Source of the DNA: Deltaproteobacteria bacterium
GTDB lineage: Bacteria > Myxococcota_A > UBA9042 > CAIXZC01
Reading direction: 5' to 3'
NCBI GenBank assembly: GCA_016875215.1
Contig: VGRX01000002.1
Span: 5,805 to 69,804, forward strand
DNA: 64,000 nt
Shown here: positions 3,017 through 61,874 of the stretch, piece after piece
Layout of the letters: every line of letters begins with the position of its first letter
How positions within the stretch are numbered: position 1 is the first letter of the stretch
The notes under the pieces: model-generated
Seen by the model: only the letters and a program-made list of their open reading frames with translations
Told to the model about the DNA's origin: nothing
Databases searched by the model: none
Position numbers and translations under genes: made by a program

Positions 3017-3024
3017 CCGCCTCT

Positions 3025-3887: not shown

Positions 3888-3893
3888 GGGGTT

Positions 3894-14121: not shown

Positions 14122-15848
<1,727 letters not shown>

Positions 15849-15876
15849 GGCGGACAGCGGGGCAGCGGGGCGAGGC

Positions 15877-35390: not shown

Positions 35391-35448
35391 GGGGTCGGGG
35401 GGAGAAATGCATCGATGGGTTCTGCCAACCAAAGTGAGGGGTCGGGGG
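35355..35448 (+). repeat. Perfect-but-one 47-bp tandem duplication covering the last 12 codons + stop of the 34293..35390 gene and 11 nt beyond
   Basis: gagaaatgcatcgatgggttctgccaacc(c/a)aagtgaggggtcggggg occurs twice head-to-tail (35355-35401, 35402-35448). It is followed by atcgtagtcgca x2 at 35490-35513. Confidence 0.7.
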
Positions 35449-35536
35449 GTATCGAGCCCAACCTGGGCCTTTGCAACAGGCGGCTCGGCATCGTAGTCGC
35501 AATCGTAGTCGCAATCGTCCTTCCCGGAGGTAGTGG

Positions 35537-36055
35537 ATGCGAGCAGTCAGCCTGGTAGCGTTCGTGGTCGTTCTGGCGGTGATTGGGACCACCTCGGCCT
35601 CGGTGGTTCGGCCGTTCACGTTGCAGGAGCTCTACTCGACGGCCCAGCTCGTCGTGGTGGGTGAGGTGACCGGCCAGACGACCTTCTGGAACGAGGCCCA
35701 CGACACGATCTACACGGAGTACCTGGTGAAGCCCGAGCGGGTGGTCAAAGGCGAGGCGCCGGCCGAGGTGCGGCTCCGGCTGATGGGGGGAAGCCTGGAC
35801 GGCAAGACGCTCACCGTCCCGGGGAATGCCCCGGTCGAGGAGGGAGAGAGGGTCCTGCTCGCCCTGCGGGACCAGGGGTCCTTCCAGACCCTGGTCGGAA
35901 TGTCCCAGGGCAAGTGGAGCTTGCGCAGTGTGGACGGGAAGGATCGGGCATGGCGAGGGCCGAGGCTGCAGGCCTTCGAGCCGCTCCGTGACGGCGAGGT
36001 GCTGCTCGACGATCTGCTGGACGACATGCAGCGGAACCCGGGGAGGATGCCATGA
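35537..36055 (+). CDS. Secreted protein of unknown function, translationally coupled (ATGA) to the downstream metalloprotease
   Basis: Signal peptide MRAVSLVAFVVVLAVIGTTSASV. GGAGG RBS 5 nt upstream. The stop overlaps the start of the 36052 gene. Confidence 0.5.
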   Translation: MRAVSLVAFVVVLAVIGTTSASVVRPFTLQELYSTAQLVVVGEVTGQTTFWNEAHDTIYTEYLVKPERVVKGEAPAEVRLRLMGGSLDGKTLTVPGNAPVEEGERVLLALRDQGSFQTLVGMSQGKWSLRSVDGKDRAWRGPRLQAFEPLRDGEVLLDDLLDDMQRNPGRMP

Positions 36056-38196: not shown

Positions 38197-38227
38197 ACCA
38201 CGAGGCAGGGGCGGCGGGGAAGAAGGC

Positions 38228-38270
38228 ATAGGACCTATAGGACAAATAGGACGAATAGGACCAATAGGAC
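38228..38270. repeat. Five tandem 9-bp units carrying ATAGGAC (cATAGGACc tATAGGACa aATAGGACg aATAGGACc aATAGGACc)
   Basis: Seen directly in the sequence. AT-rich, 32 nt downstream of the metalloprotease stop and about 240 nt upstream of plsB. Confidence 0.8.
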
Positions 38271-38430
38271 CCGCCGCTTGGGAGGGCAGAAAGCCGCCAG
38301 GGAGCAGGATCTGCCGGTGCGACGGTGCGTTGCCGGCCTGCGGATCGGAGCGAAGCTCCCCGGCTGTGGTGTCTTGGCCGACCCGTGGGCGCGGGGCGCC
38401 TGCGGCGTGATGGAACAGGCCCTGCCTGGC

Positions 38431-38459
38431 TTGACAAAGCCGGCGCTCTCGGCGATGCT
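38431..38459 (+). promoter_or_regulatory. Weak candidate promoter TTGACA-N17-GATGCT upstream of plsB
   Basis: The -35 is consensus but the -10 is poor. Position is 50-80 nt upstream of the plsB ATG. Confidence 0.2.
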
Positions 38460-38510
38460 GCGGCGGTACGGCTGACCGGGGTTGGAGTGCGACAGAGGGT
38501 CCGATAGAAC

Positions 38511-41135
38511 ATGCATTCGCGGCTGGCGCTCTGGATAAGGTTGTTCCTGTTCCCGCTGTTCGGGCGGGTGGGGATTGCTCCGCACTGGGCGGACCGGGTG
38601 CGTGAGAGCCAGGAGGCCGGGCCGGTCGTGCACGTGCTGGCGGTCGAGGGGCTGCTCGACCTGGCACTGTTCAACTACCTGTTCCTCAAGAACCGTCTGC
38701 GCCTGGCCCGGGTGACGAATTCGAAGCTGTCGAACCTGCTGAGGCCGCTGGTGGTCCTGATCTTCTTCCCCCTCCTGCTGCTGTTCCGGCTGGCAAGCCG
38801 TGGAGATCCGATGGCGGGGATGCAGAAGGCGTTGGCCGCGGGGGAGCCGTGTCTCCTGTTCCTGAAGCGGGCCCGGTTCGTGATGATGCCCGGCGGCAAC
38901 ATCGGGTTGCCGTGGCTGACCGAGCTCGTGCGGCTGCAGCCGACCCTGCCCCGGCCGGTGATGCTGGTTCCCCACGTGTTGTTCTGGACCAAGGGGCCGG
39001 AGAAGTACCGGCGCAACCTGGTCGACCTGTTTCTGGGCGATCCGAATGCTCCGGGGTTGCGCAAGCTGTTGACGTTCGTGGCATTTCCGGGCCGTGCCCA
39101 CGTCTCGTGCGGCGACCCGGTGAACCTGGCCCAGGCCCTGGCGGAGTCCACGCAGGTGGGGGAGGATGCGGCTGCCCGGAAGGTGAGCTGGCTCCTGTTC
39201 CGGGCATTCGACCGGGTCGAGAAGGTGACCCGGGGGCCGATGCTCAAGGATGCTGCGCAGGTCCGCAACGAGATGGTGGTGAATCCCGACTTCGTGGCGG
39301 GGGTGACCGAGGCGGGTCAGGCCATGGGGCTTTCGGAGAAGGCCGCAATGAAGCGGGCAGCCCGCAACATCACCGAGATCGCAGCGGATTTCCGGGAAAG
39401 CGCGATCGAGTTCCTCTCGTTCGTGCTGACCCCCATCTTCAAGCGGGTGTTCTCCGGGTTCGTGGTCGACGTGAAGGCCATGGAGACCATCCGGGAGGCC
39501 TCCGCAGATTCGGCGGTGGTCCTCGTGCCGTGCCACCGAAGCCACATCGACTACCTGGTCATCTCCTACCTGATGTACCTGCTGGGGCTCAACCCGCCGC
39601 ACATCGCGGCCGGCGCCAATCTGACGTTCTTTCCCATGGGGCCGATATTCCGGCGCTCCGGAGCCTTCTTCATCCGCCGCAAGATCGGCGACGACCGCAT
39701 CTACTCTTTCGTCCTGGCGCAGTATGTGCGCAAGCTGCTCAAGGATGGGCACTCCCTGGAGTTCTTCATCGAGGGAGGGCGGAGCCGCACGGGCAAGACC
39801 CTGCCCCCCAAGTTCGGCCTGCTCAACTACGTCGCGGAGGCGGTCACCGGCGAGGCCGTCCGCGACGTGGTCATCATCCCCCTGTCGCTCAGCTACGAGC
39901 GGATCATGGAGGTCGAAGGGTACGCGGAGGAGCTGGCCGGCCGCGAGAAGCGCAAGGAGGATGCCCTGGTCCTGGTCAAGAGCGCCGAGGTGCTGGACAG
40001 CCGCTACGGTCGGCTCTACCTTACCGCAGGGCGGCCGATCCGGATGGCCGAGTTCCTCCAGCAGACGTCGGGCAAGTCCCCGAAGGAGCTTACGGAGGAG
40101 GAGAAGCGCTACCTGGTGAAGAGGCTCGGGTACCTGATCCTGAGCCAGATCAACCGGGCCACCGTGGTGAACCCCACCGGGCTGGTCGCGATGGTGCTGC
40201 TCTCCCACCTGCGGCGGGGGATCTCGTCGGACCGCTTCCAGGAGCATGCCGGGTTCCTGCTCGACTTCGCGATCAAGCGGGGATACCCGATCTCGATCAC
40301 GCTGGACCGGGCGCTCAAGGCCGCGATCCACGACATCGCCCGCAGCCGCGAGAAAGCCAGGGAGGGGGACGACCGCCTCCCCTTCCGGACCATGGGACAG
40401 GCCATCGCACCGGCACTCCAGGAGACCATCGAGATGTTCTCGGCACAGCGCCACCTGCGCATCGAGGAGTTCGCCGGCGGGCCGGTGTATGCGGTGCGAC
40501 CCCGCTCCCGGACCTACCTGAACTACTATCGGAACAACATCATCCACGTGTACCAGCGGGAAGCGCTGGTCGCCATCAGCCTGTATGCCCGCACCTGCCA
40601 GCGGGAGATCCGGGTGGCCGAGGTGGAGGAGGACGTCCGCTTCTTCTCAAGGCTCTTCAAGAAGGAGTTCATCTTCCGGCAGGGGGACTTCGAGCGGGGG
40701 ATCGCCGCAGGGCTCGAAGCGTTCGCCCTCCAGGGTACCGTCATCCTCTCGGGGGACGAGGTCGTCCCGGTCCCGGCCTCGGTCGACCGCCTCGCCATCT
40801 TCCGCAACATGCTGCTGCCCATCGTGGAGAGCTACTGGGTCTGCGCCCGCTACGCCTCCATGGTCCGGTTCCAGGGAGCGATGAAGAGCAAGGACCTGGT
40901 CAAGGCCATCCTCGACCGGGCCCATCGTGACTACCAGGAAGGGGAGATCACGTGCCAGGAATCCCTTTCCACGGTCAGCGTGCTCAATGCACTGGAGCGC
41001 TACCTGGACATGGACCTGCTCATGACCGCCGAATCGGGTGTGGATGCCGGCAAGATCCGGCTGGCCCGGGGCAGCTCGTTCGAGGAGCTGGAGGAGCTGG
41101 CCGAGCGTCTCCGGTTCTTCGTGACCGTCGCCTGA
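38511..41135 (+). CDS. plsB: Glycerol-3-phosphate acyltransferase
   Basis: 874 aa. HxxxxD acyltransferase motif (CHRSHIDYL), FFIRRK, and EGGRSRTGK blocks characteristic of PlsB. Confidence 0.9.
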   Translation: MHSRLALWIRLFLFPLFGRVGIAPHWADRVRESQEAGPVVHVLAVEGLLDLALFNYLFLKNRLRLARVTNSKLSNLLRPLVVLIFFPLLLLFRLASRGDPMAGMQKALAAGEPCLLFLKRARFVMMPGGNIGLPWLTELVRLQPTLPRPVMLVPHVLFWTKGPEKYRRNLVDLFLGDPNAPGLRKLLTFVAFPGRAHVSCGDPVNLAQALAESTQVGEDAAARKVSWLLFRAFDRVEKVTRGPMLKDAAQVRNEMVVNPDFVAGVTEAGQAMGLSEKAAMKRAARNITEIAADFRESAIEFLSFVLTPIFKRVFSGFVVDVKAMETIREASADSAVVLVPCHRSHIDYLVISYLMYLLGLNPPHIAAGANLTFFPMGPIFRRSGAFFIRRKIGDDRIYSFVLAQYVRKLLKDGHSLEFFIEGGRSRTGKTLPPKFGLLNYVAEAVTGEAVRDVVIIPLSLSYERIMEVEGYAEELAGREKRKEDALVLVKSAEVLDSRYGRLYLTAGRPIRMAEFLQQTSGKSPKELTEEEKRYLVKRLGYLILSQINRATVVNPTGLVAMVLLSHLRRGISSDRFQEHAGFLLDFAIKRGYPISITLDRALKAAIHDIARSREKAREGDDRLPFRTMGQAIAPALQETIEMFSAQRHLRIEEFAGGPVYAVRPRSRTYLNYYRNNIIHVYQREALVAISLYARTCQREIRVAEVEEDVRFFSRLFKKEFIFRQGDFERGIAAGLEAFALQGTVILSGDEVVPVPASVDRLAIFRNMLLPIVESYWVCARYASMVRFQGAMKSKDLVKAILDRAHRDYQEGEITCQESLSTVSVLNALERYLDMDLLMTAESGVDAGKIRLARGSSFEELEELAERLRFFVTVA

Positions 41136-41161
41136 CCCCGTGATGGGGAGGGAGGGAACAG

Positions 41162-42016
41162 ATGATCATCGTCCTGATGGACTCCGAGCGGCAACGGACG
41201 AAGAAGGCAGCCGAACTCCTGAGCGAAGCGGGGTTCACCCACGTGGACCTGGACCGGGAGTTGCCGGCCCCGTCGGTGCTGAAGGCCGCTGCCTCGCAGT
41301 CGTTCGGTACCGACTTCCGGGTGCGGCTGCTGCGGGATCTTTTCGACCGGCTGCGCAACGAGCTGGTGACCGGTCCGGAGAACATCGAGGAGATCGTCGC
41401 CCTGTCCAGGCTCAAGGGGACCGGCGTGCTCGACCCGGACGGGATGCTGAGCAAGGAGGACGTGCAGCGGCTGGAGGAGGCCCATGTCCCCGTGCTGCAG
41501 AAGATGCCCCGGGGGAACAGCGACGACCAGCGGCTGAAGGCCGCGGTCCTTGCCCTGGCCGGGCGTCTGCCCCGCATGTCGTGGGACGACTACTTCATGG
41601 GCATCGCCGGCGTGGTGGCCGGTCGGGGGGACTGCGTGAAGCGGCGTGTCGCTGCCATCATCGTGAGAGAGCGGCGAATCATCGCCACCGGCTACAACGG
41701 AACGCCGCGAGGCACGGTCAACTGCGGTCAGGGGGGATGTCCGCGCTGCGCCTCGTTCGTCAAGAGCGGCACGAACCTGGGCGAGTGTCTCTGCTCGCAT
41801 GCCGAGGAGAACTCGCTCATCCAGGCTGCGCTGCACGGGATCAGCGTCAAGGGGGCCGCGCTGTACTCGACCTGCTCTCCTTGCCTGCTCTGCACCAAGA
41901 TGATCATCAACAGCGGGATTGCCCAGGTGGTCTTCAACGCGTCGTATCCGCTGGGGGCAAGACCTCTGGGGCTGTTGCGTGAGGCAGGAGTGGACGTACG
42001 CCGCTATCCCGAATAG
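41162..42016 (+). CDS. dCMP/cytidine deaminase-family protein with ~140-aa N-terminal extension
   Basis: Zinc motifs CSHAEENS and SPCLLCTKMIINSGI in the C-terminal 145 aa. The N-terminal half has no recognised domain. Strong GGGAGGGAGGG RBS. Confidence 0.75.
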   Translation: MIIVLMDSERQRTKKAAELLSEAGFTHVDLDRELPAPSVLKAAASQSFGTDFRVRLLRDLFDRLRNELVTGPENIEEIVALSRLKGTGVLDPDGMLSKEDVQRLEEAHVPVLQKMPRGNSDDQRLKAAVLALAGRLPRMSWDDYFMGIAGVVAGRGDCVKRRVAAIIVRERRIIATGYNGTPRGTVNCGQGGCPRCASFVKSGTNLGECLCSHAEENSLIQAALHGISVKGAALYSTCSPCLLCTKMIINSGIAQVVFNASYPLGARPLGLLREAGVDVRRYPE

Positions 42017-42150
42017 ACTCGGGCCGCCCCTCGGGGTGCTGCGCCGGGGGAGCGAGGACGGCCCGGGGAGAGGCATTCGGGCCGGGTGGCAATGGAAGGA
42101 CGTGAGACCCGGGTGCGTGTCCGGGGACCGGCCGGACAAGGAGACCGGTG

Positions 42151-43146
42151 ATGCCAGCGAACCTGTCAGCGGACTACAAGGCAGCGGAGGAGAGGCTGCG
42201 CCAGGCCCGCACGGTGCAGGAGAAGCTCGAGTGCCTGCAGGAGATGCTCCGGGTGATCCCCAAGCACAAGGGGACCGACCACATGCAGGCCGACCTCAAG
42301 AAGCGCATCTCCCAGCTCAAGAAAGAAGGGGAGAAGAAGGGGGTCAAGGCCTCCAGCACCTCGCTGTACGTCAAGCCGGAGGGGATCGGCCAGATCTTCC
42401 TGGTCGGCCCGCCCAACAGCGGCAAGTCGAGCCTGGTCGATGCGCTGACCAATGCGAAGCCGGAGGTCGCCCCGTATCCGTTCACCACCCAGATGTATCA
42501 GCCCGGGATGGTCCGGTACGAGAACGTCTGGATCCAGCTCGTGGACATGCCTCCGATCTCCTCCAAGGCACCGCTTGCCTGGATCCCCTCCGTGGTCCGG
42601 TACGGCAACGCCGCGCTGCTGACCGTGAGCCTGGCCAGCGACGACCTGCTCACCGAGGTCGAGGAGGTCTTCGAGGCGCTCAAGGCCGGCAAGGTCACGC
42701 TCGCACGCCGCAACGAGGAGGCGGGGATGTTCGACACGGGCATCGCCGCACTGCGCACGATGCTGGTGTGCACGCACTGCCTCGACCCCGATGCCGACGA
42801 CCGGCTGGAGCTGCTCCACGAGCTGCTCGGCGAGGGCTTCGACCTGGTCAAGGTCGATGCCTCGGCCCCGGAGACGCTGGAGCCGTTGCGCAAGACGATG
42901 TACGACCTGCTCGGCGTGGTCCGGGTCTACAGCAAGCAGCCGGGCAAGCCTGCGGACATGACCGACCCGTTTGTCGTGAAGAAGGGGACTCAGGTCGAGG
43001 AGCTCGCCACCCGGATCCACAAGGACGTCGGGGCCCGCCTCTCCTACGCCCGCATCTGGAGCAGCGACGACCGCAAGTTCGACGGCCAGCGCGTCGCCCG
43101 CAACTACGTCCTCGAGGAAGGGGACGTGGTGGAGATGCACACGTAG
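42151..43146 (+). CDS. Obg-superfamily GTPase of the DRG type (G domain + C-terminal TGS domain)
   Basis: N-terminal lysine-rich helix, GPPNSGKSSL P-loop, YPFTT, DMPPI (DxxG-like) and a C-terminal TGS fold. AAGGAGA RBS 6 nt upstream of the ATG. A GTG lies at 42148. Confidence 0.7.
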   Translation: MPANLSADYKAAEERLRQARTVQEKLECLQEMLRVIPKHKGTDHMQADLKKRISQLKKEGEKKGVKASSTSLYVKPEGIGQIFLVGPPNSGKSSLVDALTNAKPEVAPYPFTTQMYQPGMVRYENVWIQLVDMPPISSKAPLAWIPSVVRYGNAALLTVSLASDDLLTEVEEVFEALKAGKVTLARRNEEAGMFDTGIAALRTMLVCTHCLDPDADDRLELLHELLGEGFDLVKVDASAPETLEPLRKTMYDLLGVVRVYSKQPGKPADMTDPFVVKKGTQVEELATRIHKDVGARLSYARIWSSDDRKFDGQRVARNYVLEEGDVVEMHT

Positions 43147-43277
43147 GGGGAAATCAGCAGAGGCTGGAACCCTGGAGGTAAGGTGACATGAAGATGCTCG
43201 CAGATGCTCCGGCTCTCCAACGCACTTGCCTGGCTGGCGGGAAGCAGATACCGAAGTACGGGGCAGGCGGAGGCGGG

Positions 43278-44837
43278 ATGTGGCGACTCATCTCGCTCCC
43301 GTTCGGGCTGGGGCTCTTCTTCCTGGCTGCCTGCACCGGTTCGGGCCGGACCACCGTCCTGGATACGGGAACCGCGGACGCGGCGGGAGCAATCGACACG
43401 ACGGGGGCCGCCGAGACGACGGGCCCGGCCGACCTCCCTTCCGGCGTGGACATTCCCCACGACCCGGCCACACGCCTGGGACCGGAGAACCTGGTCTATG
43501 CCGGGGCGTTCCGCCTTCCGTTCGTGGAGACGCAGCCGCCGCTGACATGGACCTGGGGCGGGCGCTCCATGACCTGGTTTGCCGGAGGGGACCCGGGCAG
43601 CGGCGACACGACCCCCGGCTCCCTGTTCATCGCGGGCAACGACTACGAGGACGGGACATCGGTGCCCCGGAGCGGCTTCGTGGCCGAGCTGGCCATTCCG
43701 GACCCGGTCGTTGCCCAGGGCAATCTCGACGCGCTTCCCGTTGCCAAGATGCTCCAGGACTTCACCGACGTGCGAGGTCCGGACCTCTACCCGGAAGGCA
43801 TCTACTTCGAGCTGCCCAAGATGGGGCTCGAAGTCCTGCCCGGCGAGGGGGACAGCTCGATCCTCCACGTGGCCTGGGGACAGCACCTCGAAAACGATGC
43901 CGCCCCCTCCGCGTGCGACGGCCCCCCCGATGCCTCGTGCGTGGCCTCGCAGTCCTGGCGGGTGCTGGGCCCGGGGGGCAAGCTGGACGTCCATCCTACG
44001 GTAGGACCGTGGTGGGTGGACGGCGCCGGCCTCTACAGCGTGAACGACTACCTGTTCGCCATTCCCCAGGAGTGGGCGGACGCACACGTGGGGGGGCGCC
44101 GTCTCGTCGCAGGGCGGTTCCGGGACGGAGGGCAGGGGAGCCAGGGACCGGTTGCGGTTGCCATCGCCCCCTGGCAGCAGGGAAGCCCGCCGCCGGCAGG
44201 GGCTCTCCTCGAATCCACGGTGCTGCTGCACTACACGTCCTTTCCCGAGACGTCCGGTCGCCTGAACGGCTACCAGCACTCGGACGAGTGGGTCGGGGCC
44301 GCCTGGCTGGCTGCCGGCTCCCGCAGAGCCCTTGCGTTCGTCGGCACCAAGTCGATCGGCGCCCACTACTGGTACGGCTGGCAGCGTTGCCCGGGCGGAG
44401 TGGTTCCATGCATGGAGCCGGAATCGCTCGGTGGCCCGGGCTGCTTCGACGCCGACGGCTCGGAGTGCGGCTTCGGGCCGGAGCACTACTGTTCCTGCAC
44501 CGACGTGGACTGCGATCCCGACTGCTTCGGGGCCCGCGGCTGGTGGACCGAGGAGTGGCAGGCCCAGGTGCTGCTCTACGACCCGGCGGACCTGGAAGCC
44601 GTGGCAGCGGGCCTGGCCAAACCCTTCCAGCCCCAACCCTATGCCACGATCGTCATCGACGATCGGCTGTTCGGCCACGAGGCAGCACCCGACGTCATGG
44701 GCAGCGGAAAACAGCGGCGCTTCCGCATCGGTGCCGCTGCCTGCGACGCCCAGTCGGGCATTCTGTACGTCACCGAGATGAACGCCGACCCCACCGGCGA
44801 ACAGCCCATCGTCCACGCCTGGAGGGTGCAGAAGTAG
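43278..44837 (+). CDS. Lipoprotein of unknown function
   Basis: The internal Met gives MWRLISLPFGLGLFFLAACTG with a lipobox. Large soluble domain with no recognised family. Confidence 0.5.
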   Translation: MWRLISLPFGLGLFFLAACTGSGRTTVLDTGTADAAGAIDTTGAAETTGPADLPSGVDIPHDPATRLGPENLVYAGAFRLPFVETQPPLTWTWGGRSMTWFAGGDPGSGDTTPGSLFIAGNDYEDGTSVPRSGFVAELAIPDPVVAQGNLDALPVAKMLQDFTDVRGPDLYPEGIYFELPKMGLEVLPGEGDSSILHVAWGQHLENDAAPSACDGPPDASCVASQSWRVLGPGGKLDVHPTVGPWWVDGAGLYSVNDYLFAIPQEWADAHVGGRRLVAGRFRDGGQGSQGPVAVAIAPWQQGSPPPAGALLESTVLLHYTSFPETSGRLNGYQHSDEWVGAAWLAAGSRRALAFVGTKSIGAHYWYGWQRCPGGVVPCMEPESLGGPGCFDADGSECGFGPEHYCSCTDVDCDPDCFGARGWWTEEWQAQVLLYDPADLEAVAAGLAKPFQPQPYATIVIDDRLFGHEAAPDVMGSGKQRRFRIGAAACDAQSGILYVTEMNADPTGEQPIVHAWRVQK

Positions 44838-44915
44838 GGCAGCGCCCCCCCTGTACCTTTCAAGATAGCCTGGACGGACCGATGGGCCATCGAGTCGCGT
44901 CCGGGGGAGGTCGGA

Positions 44916-46073
44916 TCAACGTAGGGATATGTGCGAGCCGAGGGATCGGACCGGGACCGCACGGATGCCGTCCGCCAACGGGAAGACGTGGCTCCCGAGA
45001 TGGATCACGTCGATGCTGTCGAGCTTGAGATCCTCGAGCGCGATGCGCATCGACTTCGTCACCCTGGGGGCGGCGGACCGTTTGAACTCAAAGCCGAGCC
45101 GCCGGTTGCCCCGCACGACGACCAGGTCCAATTCGGCACCGGCGTGAGTGGCCCAGAAATGACACTCCTCCGGCTTTGAGGCCAGGCGCGTGGTCACCGC
45201 CTCCAGGGCAAAGCCCTCGAACGAGGCGCCGACCTTGGGATGCTGCTCGACATCGGCCCACGTTCGAAGGCCCAGCAGCGTGTGCAGGATTCCGGAGTCC
45301 GCCACGTAGAGCTTGGGAGACCGGACCTGGCGCTTGGAGATGTTCTCATGCCACGGCTGCAACTGGCGGACGAGATATGCCCCGGCGAGAAAGTCCACGT
45401 ACCGTCGCACAGCGGTGTCGGAAACGCCGAATGCCCTTCCCAACTCCGAGAGATTCAGGACCTGCCCATGCAAGTGGGCAAGCATGGTCCAGAAGCGCCG
45501 GATGGCCGCCGCTGCCAGCGGCATTCCGAGACCTGGCAGATCCCTCTCCACGACCGACCGGATGAACTCCTCCCGCCACGTGGCGCTGGCGCCATCGGAA
45601 CTTGCCAGGTAGGAACGCGGGAATCCGCCGCGCAGCCACAGCGGTTCCATGTGGTCCCCCCCTACTTCGCTCAATCCGAACCCATCGAGATCCAGTGCCG
45701 CCACCCGACCTGCAAGCGACTCGGAAATGCCCCGCACCAGCTTGGGAGAAGCACTGCCCAGCAGGAGGAAACGGACATGGACAGCCGGCCGGTCGACCAG
45801 GACCCGAAGCACCGGGAACAGGTCCGGGTTGAGCTGAGCCTCGTCGATGACGACCAGACCTTCGAGCCGTTCGAGGGCGAGAAGAGGCTCGGACAACCGG
45901 GCGATGTCGGCCGGGTTCTCCAGGTCGAACGTGTGGGTTGGACCGTTCCACGATTCGGAAAACTGCCTGGCCAGAGTGGTCTTCCCCACTTGCCGAGCAC
46001 CGAGAATGGACACGACGGGGAACTGGCCAAGCAACTCCCCGACTCTCCTGAGATGGGCCTCTCGGACAATCAT
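44916..46073 (-). CDS. AAA+ ATPase of the AAA_14/DUF4143 family
   Basis: Walker A GARQVGKTTL, Walker B VVIDEAQ, and a C-terminal DUF4143-like region. Confidence 0.8.
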   Translation of the reverse strand: MIVREAHLRRVGELLGQFPVVSILGARQVGKTTLARQFSESWNGPTHTFDLENPADIARLSEPLLALERLEGLVVIDEAQLNPDLFPVLRVLVDRPAVHVRFLLLGSASPKLVRGISESLAGRVAALDLDGFGLSEVGGDHMEPLWLRGGFPRSYLASSDGASATWREEFIRSVVERDLPGLGMPLAAAAIRRFWTMLAHLHGQVLNLSELGRAFGVSDTAVRRYVDFLAGAYLVRQLQPWHENISKRQVRSPKLYVADSGILHTLLGLRTWADVEQHPKVGASFEGFALEAVTTRLASKPEECHFWATHAGAELDLVVVRGNRRLGFEFKRSAAPRVTKSMRIALEDLKLDSIDVIHLGSHVFPLADGIRAVPVRSLGSHISLR

Positions 46074-46085
46074 GCCCCCAGTTTA

Positions 46086-46122
46086 CCTTGAAAATCCTTC
46101 ACGGCAAGTCGAATTTTCAAGG
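46086..46122. promoter_or_regulatory. Perfect 10-bp inverted repeat CCTTGAAAAT-N17-ATTTTCAAGG between the phosphoesterase stop and the AAA ATPase start
   Basis: Seen directly in the sequence. Lies 13-49 nt upstream of the ATPase ATG on the coding strand. Confidence 0.35.
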
Positions 46123-46165
46123 AGGGGCACCTATTGGGGAAGGGCCAGGAGCACGCAGCCCCCCC

Positions 46166-47470
46166 TTACTCCATGTCGAACTCCTCGAAGATCTCGTTGG
46201 TGTCGGAGTTGACGACCGTGGCGTGGATGGTGCTGGGTCCGAAGTCGAGGCGGACGTAGTGGTGGATTGTAGAGGCTGCAACGAGGAACTCGGCATCGCC
46301 GCCGGTGGCCTCGTCGGGACTGTAGAGGGGGGCCCCGCCGCCGCCGGTCACGACGTAGGGGATGCCGTTGACCTCGAAGCGCTCGTAGAGATGGTTGTGG
46401 CCCGCGACCACCAGGGTGACGCCGTACTGCTCGATGAGGGGCTGGATGTAGGTGCGGCCCAGGCTCCACGGCAGGTGGTTGGAGAAGGTGTAGAACGGCT
46501 CGTGCATGGTCACGAACACCCACGGCTTGTCCGCCAGCTTCTTGAGCGCGTCCTCGAACCAGGCCAGTGCCTCCTCCCCGGCCCAGTTGGTCGCGTACTG
46601 GTCGATGTTGATGATGCCCAGATCGCCGAGATCCACCCACCAGTTGCGCTCGTGAAGGTGGTTGTTTCCGGTCTCGAACAGTGCCTCGAAGTACCCTTCG
46701 CCGAAGGCCTCGTGGTTGCCGAAGGTCGGGAAGTAGAACGAGCTCCAGAGCATGGGGCCTTCGATCTCGAAGAACTTGTCCCAGTTGGCCAGGATGCTGC
46801 CCCCTTCGGTCAGGTCGCCGGTCTGGAGGACGAGGGGGGCCTTCTCCGCAAAGATGAGGTCGGCCACGGCCTGGTGCGCCGCATGGTCGGTGCGGGTATC
46901 GCCGAACAGGATCATCTTGGACAGGGGCTGGAACTGCGGCAGCTCGACGTGCCGGGCGAACCCCCCGTTGACCACCTCGATGTCGAAGTTCTCCGCCTCC
47001 TCCGGCACGGGCAGCAGGACCTCGTGATACCAGCCGGCGAACGTGGGCATTTCGATGCCCAGGAAGTCGAACTCCGGCTTGGTCGGCGTGGTGGTCAGCT
47101 CGGTCTGCCCCCCCTTCCATGTGAGGCGGAGCAGGATGGGCAGCTCTTCGGTGGTCTCGGCCAGGAAGGTCACCTGGCCCGGCACCGGCCACTGGAGCCA
47201 GGGGGTCTTGAAGAAGGTCACGGGTTGCGGGGCCATGCGGACGGCATCCGGCAAGGAATCGTCCGGTCGCGAGTCCGCGGCCTCGTCTGTCTCGGTGGCG
47301 AGCTCCGGGAGGCCGGAATCGGGCAGTGCGGAATCGGGCACGACCTCTGCCGGGCGCCCTGCGACGTCGCCGTCCTGGGGCTTCGAGCCTCCGGGCTGCG
47401 AGCAGGCCGCTGCCAGCAGGCAGAGCGCCGCAAACCCCGCCGGGACGCCTTGGTGAATCCCTCGCTTCAT
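46166..47470 (-). CDS. Calcineurin-like metallophosphoesterase lipoprotein (purple-acid-phosphatase-like)
   Basis: Internal start MKRGIHQGVPAGFAALCLLAAACS. GDxxxD, GNHE and GHxH metal-binding blocks (LFGDTRTD, TFGNHE, VAGHNHLYER). Confidence 0.8.
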   Translation of the reverse strand: MKRGIHQGVPAGFAALCLLAAACSQPGGSKPQDGDVAGRPAEVVPDSALPDSGLPELATETDEAADSRPDDSLPDAVRMAPQPVTFFKTPWLQWPVPGQVTFLAETTEELPILLRLTWKGGQTELTTTPTKPEFDFLGIEMPTFAGWYHEVLLPVPEEAENFDIEVVNGGFARHVELPQFQPLSKMILFGDTRTDHAAHQAVADLIFAEKAPLVLQTGDLTEGGSILANWDKFFEIEGPMLWSSFYFPTFGNHEAFGEGYFEALFETGNNHLHERNWWVDLGDLGIINIDQYATNWAGEEALAWFEDALKKLADKPWVFVTMHEPFYTFSNHLPWSLGRTYIQPLIEQYGVTLVVAGHNHLYERFEVNGIPYVVTGGGGAPLYSPDEATGGDAEFLVAASTIHHYVRLDFGPSTIHATVVNSDTNEIFEEFDME

Positions 47471-47484
47471 CAAAGGACTCCTTC

Positions 47485-49125
47485 TCAGTTGTAGAACTGC
47501 GGGAACCGGCTGAACGTGACCGCTCCGAAGAGGTTGACGAGGAAACACACCCCGACGAGCGAGTAGAAGAGCCACCCCCGCTTCCTCTCGTCCAATGCCA
47601 ACAATAGGAACAGCAGGGGCATGTAGTCCAGGGCGAAGCGGTAGCCGAACTGGAGCCAGCCCGTGTTCTGGTAGAGCAGGCCGGGAAGCGCGGTGCACGC
47701 GACAGTGACCCAGAGGATGCGGTGCAGCGGCCAGTGGAAACGCTCCCGGCTTGCCGTGTCCGCGTGCTCCCTCCTGGGCCAGAGCAGATAGAAGAAGACC
47801 GGCGTGGTGGCCAGCAGCGAGAGGCCGTGTCCCGTGATCTTCACGTAAGGGTAGTGGGGCAGGAACTGGGGCACGTTGGCGAACGCCGCGGCCAGGTTCC
47901 TCGGCAGAAACCAGAACGAGAACATCCCGTGATCCACGATGGACGGGCGGGTCCCATCCGCCAGGAACTTGTGGCCGAACTCGAACGGATTGTCGAAGCG
48001 GGCCATGTTGTACAGCATGAGCGCCACCCCGACCGCGATGCAGGGGGCCGCAAACAGGGCGAGCTGCCTGACCCTCAGCAGGATCCCCGCCCGGTTCCAC
48101 GGCTGCTTCTGGAGGAGCCACTGGAGGCCGAAGTAGGCCGAGGCGAACGCGAGCGGCGTTCGGGTGGCAAACCCGAGGGCCAGGAACAGGCCGGCCAGGA
48201 ACGGAGAGCGCAGATCCGTCGCAAACAGCAGGTAGAGCAGGTGCATGGTGATGCCCACGACCAGTGCGGTGAACCAGACCTCCCCCCGGATGCTCGAGAA
48301 GAAGTTGACCGTGCCGAAGGTGAACAGGAAGACCAGCACGAGCAACTCCGCCGTGCTGCGGGTCACATACCCGCGCTTGCGCAGCGACTGGTACAGCAGG
48401 TAGAGCAGCAGCGAGTTGAGCGCGGCCAGCGCCAGGGTGAACAGGACGTCGTTGAAGTGGTAGTGGACCAGGGCCACGAAGGGGAGCATGGCCACGGCCG
48501 GGAACGGGGGGAACGAGACGAAGTGGCGGCGGTTCAGGCAGGTGGTGCGGGTCATTCCGACGCCGCAGTTGCGGGCCGTCCCCGTGCTTCCCGCTTCGGC
48601 AAGACATGCACCGTTCTCTGCATCGAAGCGATCGCGGGCATCCCAGGCGGCCACGGCCCCGGGGTCTTCACCGGGGAACGGACGGGGATGGCACACCCGC
48701 TTGATGTCACGGGTTCGGTCGAACTCCGCCCAGTCGCCGGAGAGGGTGACGAACCGGTTCTTCCACTCGAAGCCGGATTCCTTCTCCTTCTTGGCTGCCC
48801 AGGGCCAGACCCCCTTGAACAGCTCGCCGGTCTGGAGCACCGCCTCGTAGTACGAGACCCAGTCGTTCCAGCCGCCCGAGGCAATCTGCCGGTCGATGGC
48901 CTCCTGGAGCCCGGGGGGATCGTCGGGAAGCACCGGCTTTCCCTTGCTCCGCTTGGGGGTCACCGTGTCCAGCCGGCCGTGCATGAACGACTCGGCCAGG
49001 TCGACGAAGTGGAAGTGCGGGGACGGCTGCCAGACGCGGTCCCACGATGCCAGGGCCAACCCGCCGAATGCGATCAGGAAGACGAGCACGCCAATCAGCC
49101 AGCCAGGGAATCTCGAACGCCGCAT
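47485..49125 (-). CDS. Polytopic inner-membrane protein, GT-C-like/DUF2079-like (function uncertain)
   Basis: About 12 predicted TM helices with a ~170-aa periplasmic loop after TM1. GAGG RBS. Start chosen at MRRSRFPGWLIGVLV. Confidence 0.5.
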   Translation of the reverse strand: MRRSRFPGWLIGVLVFLIAFGGLALASWDRVWQPSPHFHFVDLAESFMHGRLDTVTPKRSKGKPVLPDDPPGLQEAIDRQIASGGWNDWVSYYEAVLQTGELFKGVWPWAAKKEKESGFEWKNRFVTLSGDWAEFDRTRDIKRVCHPRPFPGEDPGAVAAWDARDRFDAENGACLAEAGSTGTARNCGVGMTRTTCLNRRHFVSFPPFPAVAMLPFVALVHYHFNDVLFTLALAALNSLLLYLLYQSLRKRGYVTRSTAELLVLVFLFTFGTVNFFSSIRGEVWFTALVVGITMHLLYLLFATDLRSPFLAGLFLALGFATRTPLAFASAYFGLQWLLQKQPWNRAGILLRVRQLALFAAPCIAVGVALMLYNMARFDNPFEFGHKFLADGTRPSIVDHGMFSFWFLPRNLAAAFANVPQFLPHYPYVKITGHGLSLLATTPVFFYLLWPRREHADTASRERFHWPLHRILWVTVACTALPGLLYQNTGWLQFGYRFALDYMPLLFLLLALDERKRGWLFYSLVGVCFLVNLFGAVTFSRFPQFYN

Positions 49126-49229
49126 TGCTCTACTTGCCTCGGGCCGTGGTGCCGGCGACCATCGACCCCTCGACATTGCTCGGGGCAGGCCATCGACCAT
49201 CCGGCTCGTGTCCTGCCGCCCTCCTGCCT

Positions 49230-49991
49230 CTACCTGTGCGGATCGAACAGGTGGAAGGTGATCGTCGCGGTCGGCGCAACGGTCCACGTGCTCACGGCAC
49301 CCTCCGGATAGGCCTTCGCCTCCGGGTCGAACTTGCACAGGAACTTGTCATACGAGGACTTGATGAACTTCAGGTCCACGCCCAGCGATACCGTCTTGAT
49401 GACCTTGTAGTCCGCCCCCAGGCCGAACTCGAAGTCGGTCCCTTCCCAGCCGGCCCCGTCCTCGGGGTTGTAGTGGTACCCGGTCATGTTGAAGAACCCG
49501 TACCCGAAGTAGAGGTTCACGTCATACTTGCGCTTGAACATGGCTGCGGTCCAGGAAGCGCCGTCCGGCAGGCTTTCGGGCTTGCGGGTGGCGAGCTTCC
49601 CGAACAGCGCGGTGAATTGGAGCGGGTAGAGGCGGAGGATGGCAGCGGCATGGCCGGCACCTTCCCAGGTGTCCCCCACGGACATCTTGTTGCCGTGCGC
49701 CAGGACGCCGGCCTCGAGGCTGCCGTATCCCATCACGTTGTAGCCCAGCTTCAGCCCGGCCGCAAAGCCGGAGCCGGTGTCGGTGCGGACCGTGTCTCCC
49801 GAGGCGGGCCCGCCCCAGGGAGACAGGCACTGACACGTTTCGTCGAAGCGGAGCGGAATGTCCCTGTCCCCATAGACCAGTGCACCGCCCAGGTCGAAGC
49901 CGAAGTAGAGCCCTCCCCGGGCCAGTGCCGGTGGCGAAAGCAGCAGCAGCGGGAGCAGGACCAGCGCGCTAATACTGGAGCGATGGATCAT
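49230..49991 (-). CDS. Outer-membrane beta-barrel protein (OmpA-like / OmpW-like beta-barrel)
   Basis: Signal peptide. Alternating amphipathic beta-strands and a C-terminal aromatic residue pattern (ITFHLF). Confidence 0.6.
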   Translation of the reverse strand: MIHRSSISALVLLPLLLLSPPALARGGLYFGFDLGGALVYGDRDIPLRFDETCQCLSPWGGPASGDTVRTDTGSGFAAGLKLGYNVMGYGSLEAGVLAHGNKMSVGDTWEGAGHAAAILRLYPLQFTALFGKLATRKPESLPDGASWTAAMFKRKYDVNLYFGYGFFNMTGYHYNPEDGAGWEGTDFEFGLGADYKVIKTVSLGVDLKFIKSSYDKFLCKFDPEAKAYPEGAVSTWTVAPTATITFHLFDPHR

Positions 49992-52257
49992 CGTAGCTTC
50001 CTCCTTCTTCGTCCTGGGGGGCCGGCCCCCCGGCCTTCCTCTTGTGATACACCTTCATGAGCCACGTCTTCAACACGGAATCCATCTTCCTTGCAATAGC
50101 GGGGCGCTCTTCGATGAGGTTGGTCCTCTCATTCGGATCCTCGACCCAGTCGTAGAGCGAGTACAGGTCCTCCCGCCGGTCCCAGAGGTAGTTGTATCGG
50201 CCGTTTCGGACCGCCACCCCCAGCAGCGGCTCGGTGCCCTGGTCGATCTTCTCCTTGAGGTAGAACTGGTGGAACACGTACCGGTCCGGCCACTCGCCCT
50301 GCCCGAGCAGGAGGGGCACCAGGCTGGTCCCCTCGAACTGCGCCTCCACCGGAAGCGCCACGAGATTGGCCAGCGTCGGGAAGAGGTCGATCAGGCTGAC
50401 CGGTGTCTCCTGGATCCGCCTCGGCTTGATGTAGCGTGAGCAGATGAGGAGCGGCACGTGCACCGTGCTCGTCTGCAGGTCGTACCCGTGCGTGTGCTTG
50501 GCGTGCTTCTTGTCGAACGTGGAGCCGTGGTCGGACGAGAACACGAGAATGTAGCCGTCCTTCTTGTTGGCCTGCCGGATCGCTTCGAGGAGCGGCTTCA
50601 TGTTCCGGTCCACGGATTCCACCTCCGCATCGTACATGTCGCTGCGCGAGGTGCCGAACAGCGTGGAATCCTCGGGTTGGGCAAAGGGAGGATGGTTGTC
50701 GTAGTAGTGGACCCACAGGAAGAGGGGCTTGGTCCGCTTGCGTCGCACGTGGGTCAGGGCCGCGTCGGTCACCTGTTTTGCGTTGTGGATCTTGGGTCCC
50801 TGGCGGGCCCGCGTCCTGGCTCCGGAAGTATCCACCTTGTCGAACCCTTGCAGCAGCCCCTTCCAACGGGAGGTGAAGTACGCGTTCGGGACCACGGCCA
50901 CGGTCTCGTAGCCGGCCTGCTGGAATGCCTCTGCCAGCGTGTGGTTCTCGGCCAGGAGCGGGTGGGGTACCTTGAGGCTCTCGCCCAGCTTGACCTGTGT
51001 GTCGAACAGACCGGTGAAGGTGGCGCCGAAGGACAGGCGGGTGCTCGGCCCCTGGGAGAACGCCTTGTCGAACGAGACGCACTCGCGGGACAGCTCGTCG
51101 ATGTTCGGGGTGATGTCCCGCTTGTAGCCCATGAAGCCGACGCGGCGGGCCGCCAGGGCATCGTCGGTGATGAGGAAGACCGGGAGGCGCTTGTCCCCCA
51201 GGGGACCGGGGAGCGGGTAGTCCCACCGCCCTCTCTTGAGCGTCGCCCGTACCACGTCCGCACCGTCGCAATCCTCGTCGATGCCGTTGCCCGGGATGTC
51301 GAGCGCCGCAGGCGAGATGTCCCTGTCGTCCGGCGCACAATCCCCTCCGGCGAACGCGTGCATGTAGCCGTCACGGTCCCGGTCGAGCAGCTTGACCATG
51401 ACCTTCCAGGCCAGCCGCGTGCCCAGCGTCCTCTGGAAGAACTGGCGCGCATGCGTATCACGCTGGGGCAGCAGGATCGCCCCGGCACTGGCGAGCACGG
51501 CGAGGCTCAGGAAGGCAACGGCAAACACCCAGGCGACCCGCGGCCGGTCCAGCCAGATGGCCAGCACGCCACCGGCCGAGAACCCGACGAGCAGTGTGGC
51601 CAGGATTGCTGCCGGCGTTTGCCACGGCGACAGCCGCACCGCCTCCCGGAACTGCCACAGGAACCAGCCGCCGGCCGCGGCAGCCAGCCCGATTCCAAGC
51701 AGCACCGGGAACACCCGCCGCGACCAGGAGAGCCGCAGGACCGGTATCCGGGCAGCACAGGAGGCCCCCAACCCTCCCAACCCCGAGATGAACAGGAACG
51801 CAGGCAGGAAGAGCACGAAAGCCCCTGCGGTCGCAGCGACCGAGAGGATGGCCTGGAATTTCGCCTGGACCACCTCCTGCGCAATGTAGCGACACACCAG
51901 GAACGAGGCGACCGCTGATGCCGAAAACCACACGGCAAGCCCGATTCCGGTCAGCAGGAGCCGGAACCCGCCCTCCGGGCCCCCCCGCACCAGCATCCGG
52001 GCCAGGGCCACAACCCGCTCGGCCAGCACCGCATACGGATTCTCACGGCCCAGCACGACACGGAGGAACAACGCTGCCAGCAGCACCGCGGGAACGACCA
52101 CCGCCACCAGGAAGAACAGCGAAGCGAGCGCATGCACCGGCCGCGCCTCACCCCCCACGCCAAGATCCACTGTCCACAGGGCCAGGACCGAGAACAGACC
52201 GGCAGACAACATCGCAGAAAACGGTCCGATTCCGGTTCTGGGCGCGCGGTCCGGCAA
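49969..52257 (-). CDS. Membrane-anchored sulfatase-like hydrolase/transferase (alkaline phosphatase superfamily; LtaS/EptA-like architecture)
   Basis: N-terminal domain of about 270 aa with 6-8 TM helices. A Cys-repeat snippet DIPGNGIDEDCDG. The C-terminal region has sulfatase-family blocks (FSSDHGS, DLFPT). TTG start at 52257; alternative ATG at 52212. Confidence 0.65.
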   Translation of the reverse strand: MPDRAPRTGIGPFSAMLSAGLFSVLALWTVDLGVGGEARPVHALASLFFLVAVVVPAVLLAALFLRVVLGRENPYAVLAERVVALARMLVRGGPEGGFRLLLTGIGLAVWFSASAVASFLVCRYIAQEVVQAKFQAILSVAATAGAFVLFLPAFLFISGLGGLGASCAARIPVLRLSWSRRVFPVLLGIGLAAAAGGWFLWQFREAVRLSPWQTPAAILATLLVGFSAGGVLAIWLDRPRVAWVFAVAFLSLAVLASAGAILLPQRDTHARQFFQRTLGTRLAWKVMVKLLDRDRDGYMHAFAGGDCAPDDRDISPAALDIPGNGIDEDCDGADVVRATLKRGRWDYPLPGPLGDKRLPVFLITDDALAARRVGFMGYKRDITPNIDELSRECVSFDKAFSQGPSTRLSFGATFTGLFDTQVKLGESLKVPHPLLAENHTLAEAFQQAGYETVAVVPNAYFTSRWKGLLQGFDKVDTSGARTRARQGPKIHNAKQVTDAALTHVRRKRTKPLFLWVHYYDNHPPFAQPEDSTLFGTSRSDMYDAEVESVDRNMKPLLEAIRQANKKDGYILVFSSDHGSTFDKKHAKHTHGYDLQTSTVHVPLLICSRYIKPRRIQETPVSLIDLFPTLANLVALPVEAQFEGTSLVPLLLGQGEWPDRYVFHQFYLKEKIDQGTEPLLGVAVRNGRYNYLWDRREDLYSLYDWVEDPNERTNLIEERPAIARKMDSVLKTWLMKVYHKRKAGGPAPQDEEGGSYDDPSLQY

Positions 52258-52430: not shown

Positions 52431-52694
52431 ATGACGAAGGCTGAACTGATCGATGCGGTGAAGGGTGACCTGACGAAGAAGGCAGCGGCGGAGTTCGTGG
52501 ACGGTCTCTTCGAGACGCTGAAGACCGCGCTCAAGAAGAGCGGCAAGTTCGCGTACCCCGGATTCGGCACCTTCACGGTGAAGACCCGCAAGGCCCGCAA
52601 GGGAAAGAACCCCCGGACGGGCAAGCCCATCAACATCCCGGCGAGCAAGACCGTGCAGTTCCGCGCCGCCGCAGCGTTGAAGGGAAAGCTGTAG
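52431..52694 (+). CDS. hup: DNA-binding protein HU
   Basis: 87 aa with typical HU arm GFGTFTVKTRKARKGKNPRTGKPINIP. Confidence 0.9.
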   Translation: MTKAELIDAVKGDLTKKAAAEFVDGLFETLKTALKKSGKFAYPGFGTFTVKTRKARKGKNPRTGKPINIPASKTVQFRAAAALKGKL

Positions 52695-52709
52695 CCGTAC
52701 TGTGCGACA

Positions 52710-52736
52710 TGCGGGCCTCCGAATTGGGGGCCCGCA
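52710..52736 (+). terminator. Stem-loop TGCGGGCC-N11-GGCCCGCA 16 nt after the hup stop
   Basis: 8-bp perfect stem, no T-tract. Confidence 0.4.
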
Positions 52737-52810
52737 CAACTGACCCGAGCCTGGTTGGCCGCCCCGGCGGGTGGCACGTCCGTGTTCCGACTTCAGTTCA
52801 GGGTCCATAA

Positions 52811-54445
<1,635 letters not shown>

Positions 54446-54452
54446 GAGGGGC

Positions 54453-59136: not shown

Positions 59137-59631
59137 TCAAACAGAAGTTGGCGTTTCCCCTTTCCCCTTCCATGTCCAGAGCAGGTTTGCGAAGAAATTC
59201 CAGAACATGGCCGTGCCGATGCCGATGCAGCCCGCGGCCAGATCGTCCACGTTCACCGTGCCGACCCCCGGCAGGCTCATCGGGCCGAAGAAGACCAGCC
59301 CCCCCGACTTCAGCAGCCAGTTGAGGGTCGAGAAGATCCCCTGGTTGATTCCAAAGCCGACCAGGCTCACGCCGTGGAACCTCAGAAGCCGCGTCCGGAA
59401 AGGGACCTGCCGGCGACGGTCCGAGAACGTCCACAAGTCGTTGAGCAGGAAGTTCGTGAGTATCGACATCTCGACCGAGAATGCGTAGGCCAGGTTGCTG
59501 GCCCACAGGTCGTCGAGCAGGCCCAGCCCCCGGGTCAGCAGCGCGTAGATGCCTAGGTTCACGAACACGCCGCTGCCCCCGACCACCCCGAACTTGAAGA
59601 ACCTCACCAGCAGGTCCTGTTGTCGCGTCAT
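59137..59631 (-). CDS. GtrA-family polysaccharide-synthesis membrane protein
   Basis: FxKFxxVGxxGxxVN N-terminal motif, 4 TM helices, about 160 aa. Confidence 0.85.
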   Translation of the reverse strand: MTRQQDLLVRFFKFGVVGGSGVFVNLGIYALLTRGLGLLDDLWASNLAYAFSVEMSILTNFLLNDLWTFSDRRRQVPFRTRLLRFHGVSLVGFGINQGIFSTLNWLLKSGGLVFFGPMSLPGVGTVNVDDLAAGCIGIGTAMFWNFFANLLWTWKGKGETPTSV

Positions 59632-59680: not shown

Positions 59681-60694
59681 TCATATCAGCCTCTTCAGCA
59701 CATCCAGCGCAGCGGCGACGTCCTGCCCATCTACGTCCAGGTGCGTGACGCAGCGGATCGTGTCCGGCTCCACGGCCGACGTCCGGATACCTGCATCCTC
59801 GAGTCGGGTGGCAAGCTTCTCGGCCTCCGGATGGCGGAAGTAGACCATGTTCGTCTCGACCCGGTTCGTCACGGCAAGGCCGAGCTGTTCCAGGCCTCGG
59901 GCAAGCAGTGCGGCGTTGGCGTGGTCCTTTGCCAGGCGCTCCACGTGGTGGTCGAGGGCATACAGGGCGGCCGCTGCCAGGATTCCGGCCTGGCGCCAGC
60001 TCCCGCCGAGCATGTGGCGGTAGTGCCAGGCGCGCTCGATGTCCGCCCGGCTCCCGGCAAGTGCGGAGCCCACCGGGGCCCCCAGCCCCTTGGAGAAGCA
60101 GACTGAGACGGTATCGCACGGGGCCGCGTACTCGCTCACGGGGACGCGGGCGGCAACGGATGCGTTCCACAGGCGAGCGCCGTCCATGTGGACTTTGAGG
60201 CCGTGGCTGCGGGCCAGCTCGGCCAGGGCTTTCACCCGCTCGAGCGGATAGACGATCCCTCCGCCCCGGTTGTGGGTGTTCTCGAGCAGCAGCGCGGTCT
60301 GCCTCGGGCGGTAGTAGACCGGTGCGTACAGCACCCGGGCCACGTCGTCGACCTCGAGGATTCCGCGGTCCCCCCGCACGGTCTTGAACAGGGCCCCGGA
60401 GAACGCACCGGCACCGCCGGCTTCGTAGTAGACGGGGTGGGCCTCGGACTCGATGACCAGCTCGTCCCCCGGCTCGGCCCGCAGGCGGATGGCAAGGATG
60501 TTGGCCATGGTACCCGTGGGCACGTACAGTGCGGCTTCCTTGCCGAGAAGCCGGGCGATCCGCGCCTCGAGAGCGAGCACCGTCGGATCCTCGTTGTAGA
60601 CGGTGTCCCCCACTTCGGCCGCTGCCATTGCAGCCCGCATGGCTTGCCCGGGTCGGGTGACGGTATCGCTGCGAAGGTCTATGATACGGGTCAT
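59681..60694 (-). CDS. ltaE: Low-specificity L-threonine aldolase (PLP-dependent)
   Basis: IDLRSDTVTRP N-terminus. PLP-lysine context SVCFSKGLGAPVGS. Length 337 aa. Confidence 0.9.
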   Translation of the reverse strand: MTRIIDLRSDTVTRPGQAMRAAMAAAEVGDTVYNEDPTVLALEARIARLLGKEAALYVPTGTMANILAIRLRAEPGDELVIESEAHPVYYEAGGAGAFSGALFKTVRGDRGILEVDDVARVLYAPVYYRPRQTALLLENTHNRGGGIVYPLERVKALAELARSHGLKVHMDGARLWNASVAARVPVSEYAAPCDTVSVCFSKGLGAPVGSALAGSRADIERAWHYRHMLGGSWRQAGILAAAALYALDHHVERLAKDHANAALLARGLEQLGLAVTNRVETNMVYFRHPEAEKLATRLEDAGIRTSAVEPDTIRCVTHLDVDGQDVAAALDVLKRLI

Positions 60695-60719: not shown

Positions 60720-60956
60720 TCAGTCTTTGATGCGCCACAGGGAAAGGGTGCTGCCGCCCGCGTTGTAGTCGAACCAGGCCGCATGGAGCCAGTCCTCGGA
60801 GCGGCAGAAGCCGACGACACCGGTCTTGTCCCTGGTCTCGGGCAAGCCGAACGCGTAGCTCTCGGCAGCGTTTGCGGAGTCGACTTCGGCCGAAAAGACC
60901 GGGGCCTTGTCCCCCGCTGCCGAGTAGCCGATGATGATCCGTTCTCCGTCGTGATT
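60720..60956 (-). other. In-frame continuation of the 60957..61874 reading frame (78 codons, strong GC3 bias, no start codon): putative interrupted gene, pseudogene or sequencing error
   Basis: Translation NHDGERIIIGYSAAGDKAPVF...WFDYNAGGSTLSLWRIKD. The third-codon positions are about 85% G/C, as in the real genes here. There is no in-frame ATG or GTG. Confidence 0.4.
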
Positions 60957-61874
60957 TTAGGCGGTCGGCTCGACGGCCGGAAACCCCTCGAGCTCGGTCC
61001 ACTTGGTCTGTGCATCGGCCACGTAGTGGACCCACTTCTTCACCCCTTTGTCCGAGACCCGGAACCAGAGGGCCATGCGGTCGTCCCGGCCGTAGATCTC
61101 CGCGACCACGCTGCTGGGCTGACCGTCCTTCTCCGCCACGTAGTCGGGAAACGCCGGGCACGATTCCCATTGGGTGTCTGCGTTGCCGAACGCATCGATC
61201 TGGTAGCAGACGGTTCCCAGCGCGTCCGCAGCGTTGGCCAACAGCCGGATCTTGTCCGAGGTGACGTGGAAGCCCATTGCAGTCTCGACGAGCCGGGGAC
61301 CGACCTGCTCGAATCCGCTCCCTCCCACGTTTCCGCGGTGGACCAGGTACTCCGCGGTGGAGCCGTCTCGGCTGAGCGCAAAGACCTTGTCCCCCTGCGT
61401 GGCAAGATCGCGGATCTCCAGGTTCTCGAACGCATACCCCAGATCGGTAGCCTGGCCTTCATCGTCCACGCCGACCAGGGACGCCGTGTTGTTGGGCCCG
61501 CCGAACTGGGCCACCAGGACCTGTGAATCGAGCACTGCGACAAGGCCGATCCCGTCGTACACCTTCTCGAAACCGACGGTACCGGCGGGCTGCCACACGT
61601 AGAGCCCCTTGGAGACGAGGCCCTCCACGTCCGCAACCACCCTCGTCTGGTTGCACCCGAACCCGCGCACCTTGGTGATGCCCTCGATGGTGGCGACCTC
61701 GACCTCCTTCCACTGCTTCTTGACCGGCGGTTCCGCACTCTCCGTCACCTCGCCGAGCTCCCCGCCAGCGGTCTCGATGATATCCGGGGTCGATGTCCCG
61801 TCTCCGCCGCCGCCGCCGCAAGCCGCCATCCCCACAGCGACCAGGAGCGCCGCACACAGACTCCGATACGCCAT
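60957..61874 (-). CDS. Lipoprotein of unknown function, ending at an in-frame TAA that is followed by 78 further coding-like codons
   Basis: Lipobox MAYRSLCAALLVAVGMAAC. The ORF stops at TAA (60957-60959). The same frame continues open to a TGA at 60720-60722. Confidence 0.55.
   Translation of the reverse strand: MAYRSLCAALLVAVGMAACGGGGGDGTSTPDIIETAGGELGEVTESAEPPVKKQWKEVEVATIEGITKVRGFGCNQTRVVADVEGLVSKGLYVWQPAGTVGFEKVYDGIGLVAVLDSQVLVAQFGGPNNTASLVGVDDEGQATDLGYAFENLEIRDLATQGDKVFALSRDGSTAEYLVHRGNVGGSGFEQVGPRLVETAMGFHVTSDKIRLLANAADALGTVCYQIDAFGNADTQWESCPAFPDYVAEKDGQPSSVVAEIYGRDDRMALWFRVSDKGVKKWVHYVADAQTKWTELEGFPAVEPTA

Follow-up and report, generated by a model that had tools for sequence, protein, structure and literature searches.

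An in-frame TAA in a predicted β-propeller lipoprotein gene is most likely an artefact of the metagenome-assembled contig that carries it

Is the TAA codon that interrupts a lipoprotein gene in the stretch of DNA analyzed here (64 kb; hereafter, the window) a genuine truncation, a codon that is recoded, or an error in the deposited sequence? In the window sequence, the open reading frame (ORF) runs on the minus strand from an ATG at 61874..61872 to the in-frame TAA at 60959..60957, and it is annotated as such in GenBank as a coding sequence for 305 amino acids (MBM4352310.1; FJ109_00720; 60957..61874). Past the TAA, 78 further codons are open in the same frame (60956..60723) up to a terminal TGA at 60722..60720. 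The next gene downstream (59681..60694, minus strand) encodes a threonine-aldolase-like protein of 337 amino acids from the Beta_elim_lyase family, and its ATG at 60694 is located 25 nt beyond this TGA. The sequence-only reading of the locus had described the stop, the open tail, a strong GC3 bias in this tail, and the position of the stop in the only AT-rich patch, and all of these descriptions hold for the contig. The GC3 is 0.846 in the tail vs. 0.852 upstream of the TAA, and apart from the hexamer ATTTTA at 60954..60959, the gene has no A/T-only run of at least five bases; the entire 64 kb has only seven such runs of at least six bases, this hexamer included. The additional claim that the tail contains no start codon was wrong: a TTG at 60845 is an in-frame start candidate, and an entry in IMG, P0012, is a 41-amino acid ORF called from this TTG (60720-60845, minus strand).

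A search with the joined protein, i.e., the ORF plus its tail, yielded 10 matches in 5.8 billion proteins, one of which is the 305-residue product of the window itself. The nine homologues are 230-393 amino acids long; eight are full-length (377-393 amino acids) and one is a fragment of 230 residues. In the alignment, the position of the stop is occupied by an invariant Trp, encoded by TGG, in 9 out of 9, and every homologue continues across the site, where the Trp is followed by an invariant H-D-G. Close relatives also share the C-terminus ...GGSTLSLWRIKD (...LSLWRIKD). Three of the homologues, with 72-76% protein identity, are found in conserved synteny, and the order of the genes in the orthologous loci (L001-L006) is Cys-rich protein, lipoprotein, a gap of 25 nt, the aldolase of the Beta_elim_lyase family, and GtrA. 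For the tail, dN/dS amounts to 0.09-0.31 among the intact orthologues and to 0.23-0.25 between the window and the orthologues. Amino-acid changes that are private to the lineage of the window affect 6 of the 78 residues in the tail (7.7%) and 20 of 248 upstream (8.1%). Neither these changes, nor the dN/dS values, nor the identity to the intact protein of the same population discussed below gave any sign of decay or relaxed constraint downstream of the TAA, and the tail is, as judged from these comparisons, under purifying selection. Since every homologue extends across the site and retains the Trp there, and since the tail is under such selection, the lipoprotein ORF and the tail are, on the evidence of sequence, a single gene interrupted by a stop. 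This agrees with the earlier suspicion of one gene, for which comparison with orthologues had been proposed as the way to tell one gene from two.

The Cys-rich, secreted protein in this gene order is encoded directly upstream in the window (61894-63030, minus strand); it consists of 378 residues with repeated CG.DGCGG.CG.C motifs and has no Pfam match. As it adjoins the lipoprotein in every orthologous locus examined, the two proteins may work together.

The N-terminus of the lipoprotein, MAYRSLCAALLVAVGMAAC (61818..61874, minus strand), has the features of a signal peptide that ends in a lipobox-like motif, VGMAAC. Its Cys19 is nearly invariant, being conserved in at least 90% of the homologues in the alignment, and the product is thus predicted from its sequence to be a bacterial lipoprotein. 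A Pfam scan of the joined protein revealed no family. AlphaFold, provided with the homologues, modeled the intact 384-residue protein as an all-β structure (pLDDT 79, pTM 0.77), in which the C-terminal 78 residues form the last strands (pLDDT 86-94). Foldseek matched this model to propellers of the Kelch, WD40, designed 8-blade and sialidase types with E-values of about 1e-8 to 1e-5 (best, 2.5e-8); the top matches (Kelch, WD40, and designed 8-blade) had a probability of 1.00, with TM-scores of only about 0.45-0.59. The predicted model thus conforms to a closed ring of four-stranded blades, which makes the product a putative secreted β-propeller lipoprotein from a small family with no assigned function. 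According to the model, truncation at residue 305 would leave the product devoid of the closing part of the propeller ring.

The same population, with 99.8-100% DNA identity to the window, is represented in other assemblies (L007-L015), i.e., in the JGI metagenome 3300020603, which belongs to a study of Lake Tanganyika (10.1101/834861), and in the runs SRR7990334 and SRR16108672. The Logan and JGI assemblies are independent of each other, and SRR7990334 may or may not be the read set from which the metagenome-assembled genome (MAG) itself was derived. The comparison was based on Logan contigs of run SRR7990334 (L007, L009, and L011) and on contigs of the JGI metagenome (L008 and L014). It covered ~48.7 kb of the window in total, including 41.6 kb against the Logan contigs; positions 1-6069, 13159-16782, and 51136-56761 fall outside the comparison. 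At the site of the stop, L007 and L008, which are at least 99.77% identical to the window, both read GCC TGG CAT CAC, where the window has GCC TAA AAT CAC. In these assemblies, the gene consists of 384 codons plus the TGA (60720..61874, minus strand). The protein encoded on both contigs, P0011 (384 amino acids), shares a 90% cluster with the annotated protein and differs from the read-through translation of the window only in having W306-H307 instead of a stop and Asn; the other 382 codons translate identically, and the orphaned 78-codon tail (60723..60956) is, with the exception of N307, 100% identical at the protein level. Exact-pattern DNA scans around the site in the metagenome_contigs and genome_contigs sets gave no matches, although L008 does carry the pattern. 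An exact-protein look-up of the 305-residue product (P0001) in the gene-position index gave no entry.

The differences between the window and these contigs have an unusual form. L009 matches the window at every one of 15,735 bases (35401..51135). In the 7239 bases shared with L007 (56762..64000), there are six mismatches, which constitute two blocks of three adjacent bases; in the 18,598 bases shared with L011 (16783..35380), there are 12, including three blocks of three bases; and L014 (6070..13158) shows two, at positions 7295-6, where AA in L014 is GG in the window. L007 and L008 differ from each other at seven positions, which are isolated, scattered SNPs and never blocks. Altogether, at least six blocks are private to the window contig, and in each of these, three consecutive bases have been replaced by three repeats of the plus-strand base that directly precedes them on the 5' side. 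All six obey this rule, for which the chance with random homopolymer blocks would be, by our own arithmetic, (1/4)^6 or ~2e-4, and the blocks make up nearly all differences in the 48.7 kb. They preserve length, amount to about one in every 8 kb compared, and share, in the orientation of the contig, the signature XNNN to XXXX.

The block at 60956..60958 (plus strand) is the one that created the TAA: the window reads GAT-TTT-AGG, the Logan and JGI contigs read GAT-GCC-AGG, and on the gene strand TGGCAT becomes TAAAAT, with W306 replaced by a stop and H307 by Asn. In the gtrA gene (59137..59631, minus strand), ACC-ATG-GG has become ACC-CCC-GG at 59267..59269, which replaces Met122 by Gly. Two blocks are located in the gene for a protein of 767 residues: at 30712..30714, CTC became GGG after a G and generated, together with an A-to-C difference at 30710, the substitutions E33P and L34R, and at 28672..28674, CTT became GGG after a G (K713P). 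In the gene for a radical SAM protein, GAG became CCC after a C at 21396..21398 (L461G). Finally, at 7295..7297, as compared with L014, AAG became GGG after a G, two of the three bases being visibly changed (K409G). All block coordinates are on the plus strand. Thus, the protein is altered in six out of six cases, and the targets include the invariant Trp and a conserved hydrophobic position in GtrA: residue 122 is Val or Ile in the orthologues and Gly in the window. The Gly122 form is the one deposited as MBM4352308.1, and the Met122 form occurs only in the Logan and JGI data. Since both this protein and the 305-residue MBM4352310.1 are annotated in GenBank, the blocks belong to the public deposit. 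All six blocks are located in coding sequence, five of them in genes on the minus strand; this excess could be due to chance, as about half of the compared sequence consists of minus-strand genes, or could be a hint of non-randomness.

Besides the blocks, three isolated single-base differences were found relative to L011, at 17210, 27091, and 30710. Those at 17210 and 27091 result in D143G and G489R, and the one at 30710 contributes to E33P/L34R. Only the difference at 17210 fits with copying of the previous base, and the window base at 27091 is also contradicted by a JGI contig (L012). Two well-supported ORFs on the plus strand, 52820-54445 and 14118-15848, gave empty exact-protein look-ups, and their neighboring genes were found; this could reflect a wrong choice of the start codon or the presence of further overwritten blocks inside them.

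These observations argue for an artefact of this MAG contig as the source of the TAA, with an uninterrupted 384-codon gene in the organism itself, a reading to which we assign a probability of roughly 0.85. A technical error would have overwritten three bases with copies of the preceding base on the plus strand, thereby converting ATGCCA into ATTTTA. The TAA would then exist only in the deposited contig, and the gene in the organism would be an ordinary, uninterrupted one. A technical fault is indicated by the orientation of the blocks relative to the contig, their frequency of ~1 per 8 kb, their absence from independent assemblies, and their indiscriminate occurrence at conserved residues; the pattern is private to one assembly, recurrent, and dependent on the direction of the contig. 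We infer from this assembly-private pattern, rather than from the source reads, that the cause is probably technical (in reads, assembly, or polishing) and not mutational. As the same blocks result in missense changes elsewhere, the stop would simply reflect which bases happened to be hit. If the TAA is artefactual, the 305-residue MBM4352310.1 is a truncated mis-annotation, and the false stop has given rise to another spurious database entry, P0012. To our knowledge, no sequencer or assembler fault has been documented that gives length-preserving overwrites of three nucleotides by repeats of the previous base.

Could the stop be real all the same? It is present in the deposited record and annotated there as a stop, and in a very recent, strain-private null allele, in which the change of TGGCAT into TAAAAT truncates the protein at residue 305, a perfectly preserved tail is just what would be expected. 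The orthologues are intact across the site, as they should be for a nascent pseudogene, and the C-terminal 78 residues form an integral, confidently modeled part of the propeller, so that the product without the last strands probably would not fold. However, the stop was not reproduced in the independent data from the same lineage, since the two independent assemblies from the same population (L007 and L008) read TGGCAT, and it is one of six private, directional 3-nt blocks in a sequence that shows almost no ordinary SNPs relative to the Logan contigs in 41.6 kb. Neither do we know of a mutational process that yields 3-nt blocks by copying the previous base, and a repeat that could have templated them is absent: for an origin by template switching or from quasi-palindromes, no matching direct or inverted repeat was found within 300 nt, save for a chance 7-mer. 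Adenine mutagenesis like that of diversity-generating retroelements (DGR) was also considered and rejected, as the changes in the blocks are not A-specific. Overall, a real null allele seems unlikely. A broader supposition is that all six blocks are genuine mutations left by an undescribed, strand-directed process, in which a polymerase copies a single template base repeatedly into the three positions that follow. In that case, the null allele would be genuine as well, with hundreds of similar lesions across the genome. We consider this supposition to be very improbable.

Still further removed is programmed recoding, either by readthrough of the TAA to generate the 384-residue protein or by reassignment of TAA to a sense codon, to which we attach next to no credence. 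It would account for the gene-like sequence that carries on in frame, and, since no other candidate gene ends in TAA, termination at this codon is not directly demonstrated in the window. Against it, the stop is not conserved: TGG is found at this position in the same population, in DNA that is at least 99.77% identical, and in every orthologue, i.e., in the nine homologues plus the two assemblies. Among the ~42 candidate genes in the 64 kb, this is the sole in-frame TAA, where many would be expected in conserved genes upon reassignment; the genes end in TGA (25), TAG (16), or TAA (1, the probably artefactual one). The same block signature elsewhere results in plain missense changes. A TAA with an A directly after it is not known to be leaky, the 126-nt fold 3' of the stop is not unusual (z = -1.03), there is no Rfam match, and neither a stimulatory 3' context nor an RNA structure was found. 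The 64-kb window contains no tRNA genes. If there is no stop in the cell, there is nothing to be read through. Of the three explanations that the sequence-only reading had left side by side, an error in sequencing or assembly is strongly favored, a real nonsense mutation retains a small share, and deliberate readthrough finds no support. A GC3-based scan for other interrupted genes was uninformative, because antisense frames have a high GC3 as well in this DNA (66.6% GC).

Some further properties of the site were recorded. As a trinucleotide, TAA has only 22 occurrences on each strand of the 64 kb. A terminator-like hairpin, CGGGGGACAAGGCCCCG followed by GTCTTTTCGG, is present at 60900..60916 (minus strand), 41 nt past the TAA and within the true coding sequence; one such hairpin was found vs. 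0.5 expected, which is within chance. A promoter scan at TAAAAT detected no promoter-like site, and the creation of a promoter is thus unsupported.

The biological weight of the locus is small, as it appears to harbor an ordinary, intact lipoprotein gene. The practical consequences are wider. The MAG contig behind MBM4352310.1 and MBM4352308.1 seems to carry a recurring overwrite error, roughly one per 8 kb, and the false truncations and missense changes that stem from it would now be present in nr and IMG. Scans of this assembly for recoding, pseudogenes, or unusual codons can be expected to give false positives, and the XNNN to XXXX signature in contig orientation is easily screened for.

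When compared with known systems, the locus resembles cases of readthrough or reassignment, e.g., of TGA to Trp in genetic code 4, in that a stop is found where homologues have a Trp and in that the frame continues. It differs from these in that the codon is TAA and not TGA, that it is single and not conserved within the species, and that no stimulatory element accompanies it and no suppressor tRNA is encoded in the window. With nascent nonsense pseudogenes it shares the loss of a conserved codon to an in-frame stop and an undecayed frame beyond, whereas here the stop is not reproduced in the same population and is part of blocks that do not look biological. The predicted product is, at the level of the fold, similar to bacterial β-propeller lipoproteins, with a lipobox Cys followed by an all-β propeller model; its sequence is 7-16% (mostly 8-12%) identical to those of solved propellers, and it has no Pfam family. 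Most closely, the locus resembles consensus or assembly errors in MAGs that generate false stops, which likewise combine an assembly-private stop with intact orthologues, identical flanks, and a truncated product. Such errors are usually indels or single-base miscalls, whereas those described here are length-preserving overwrites of three bases.
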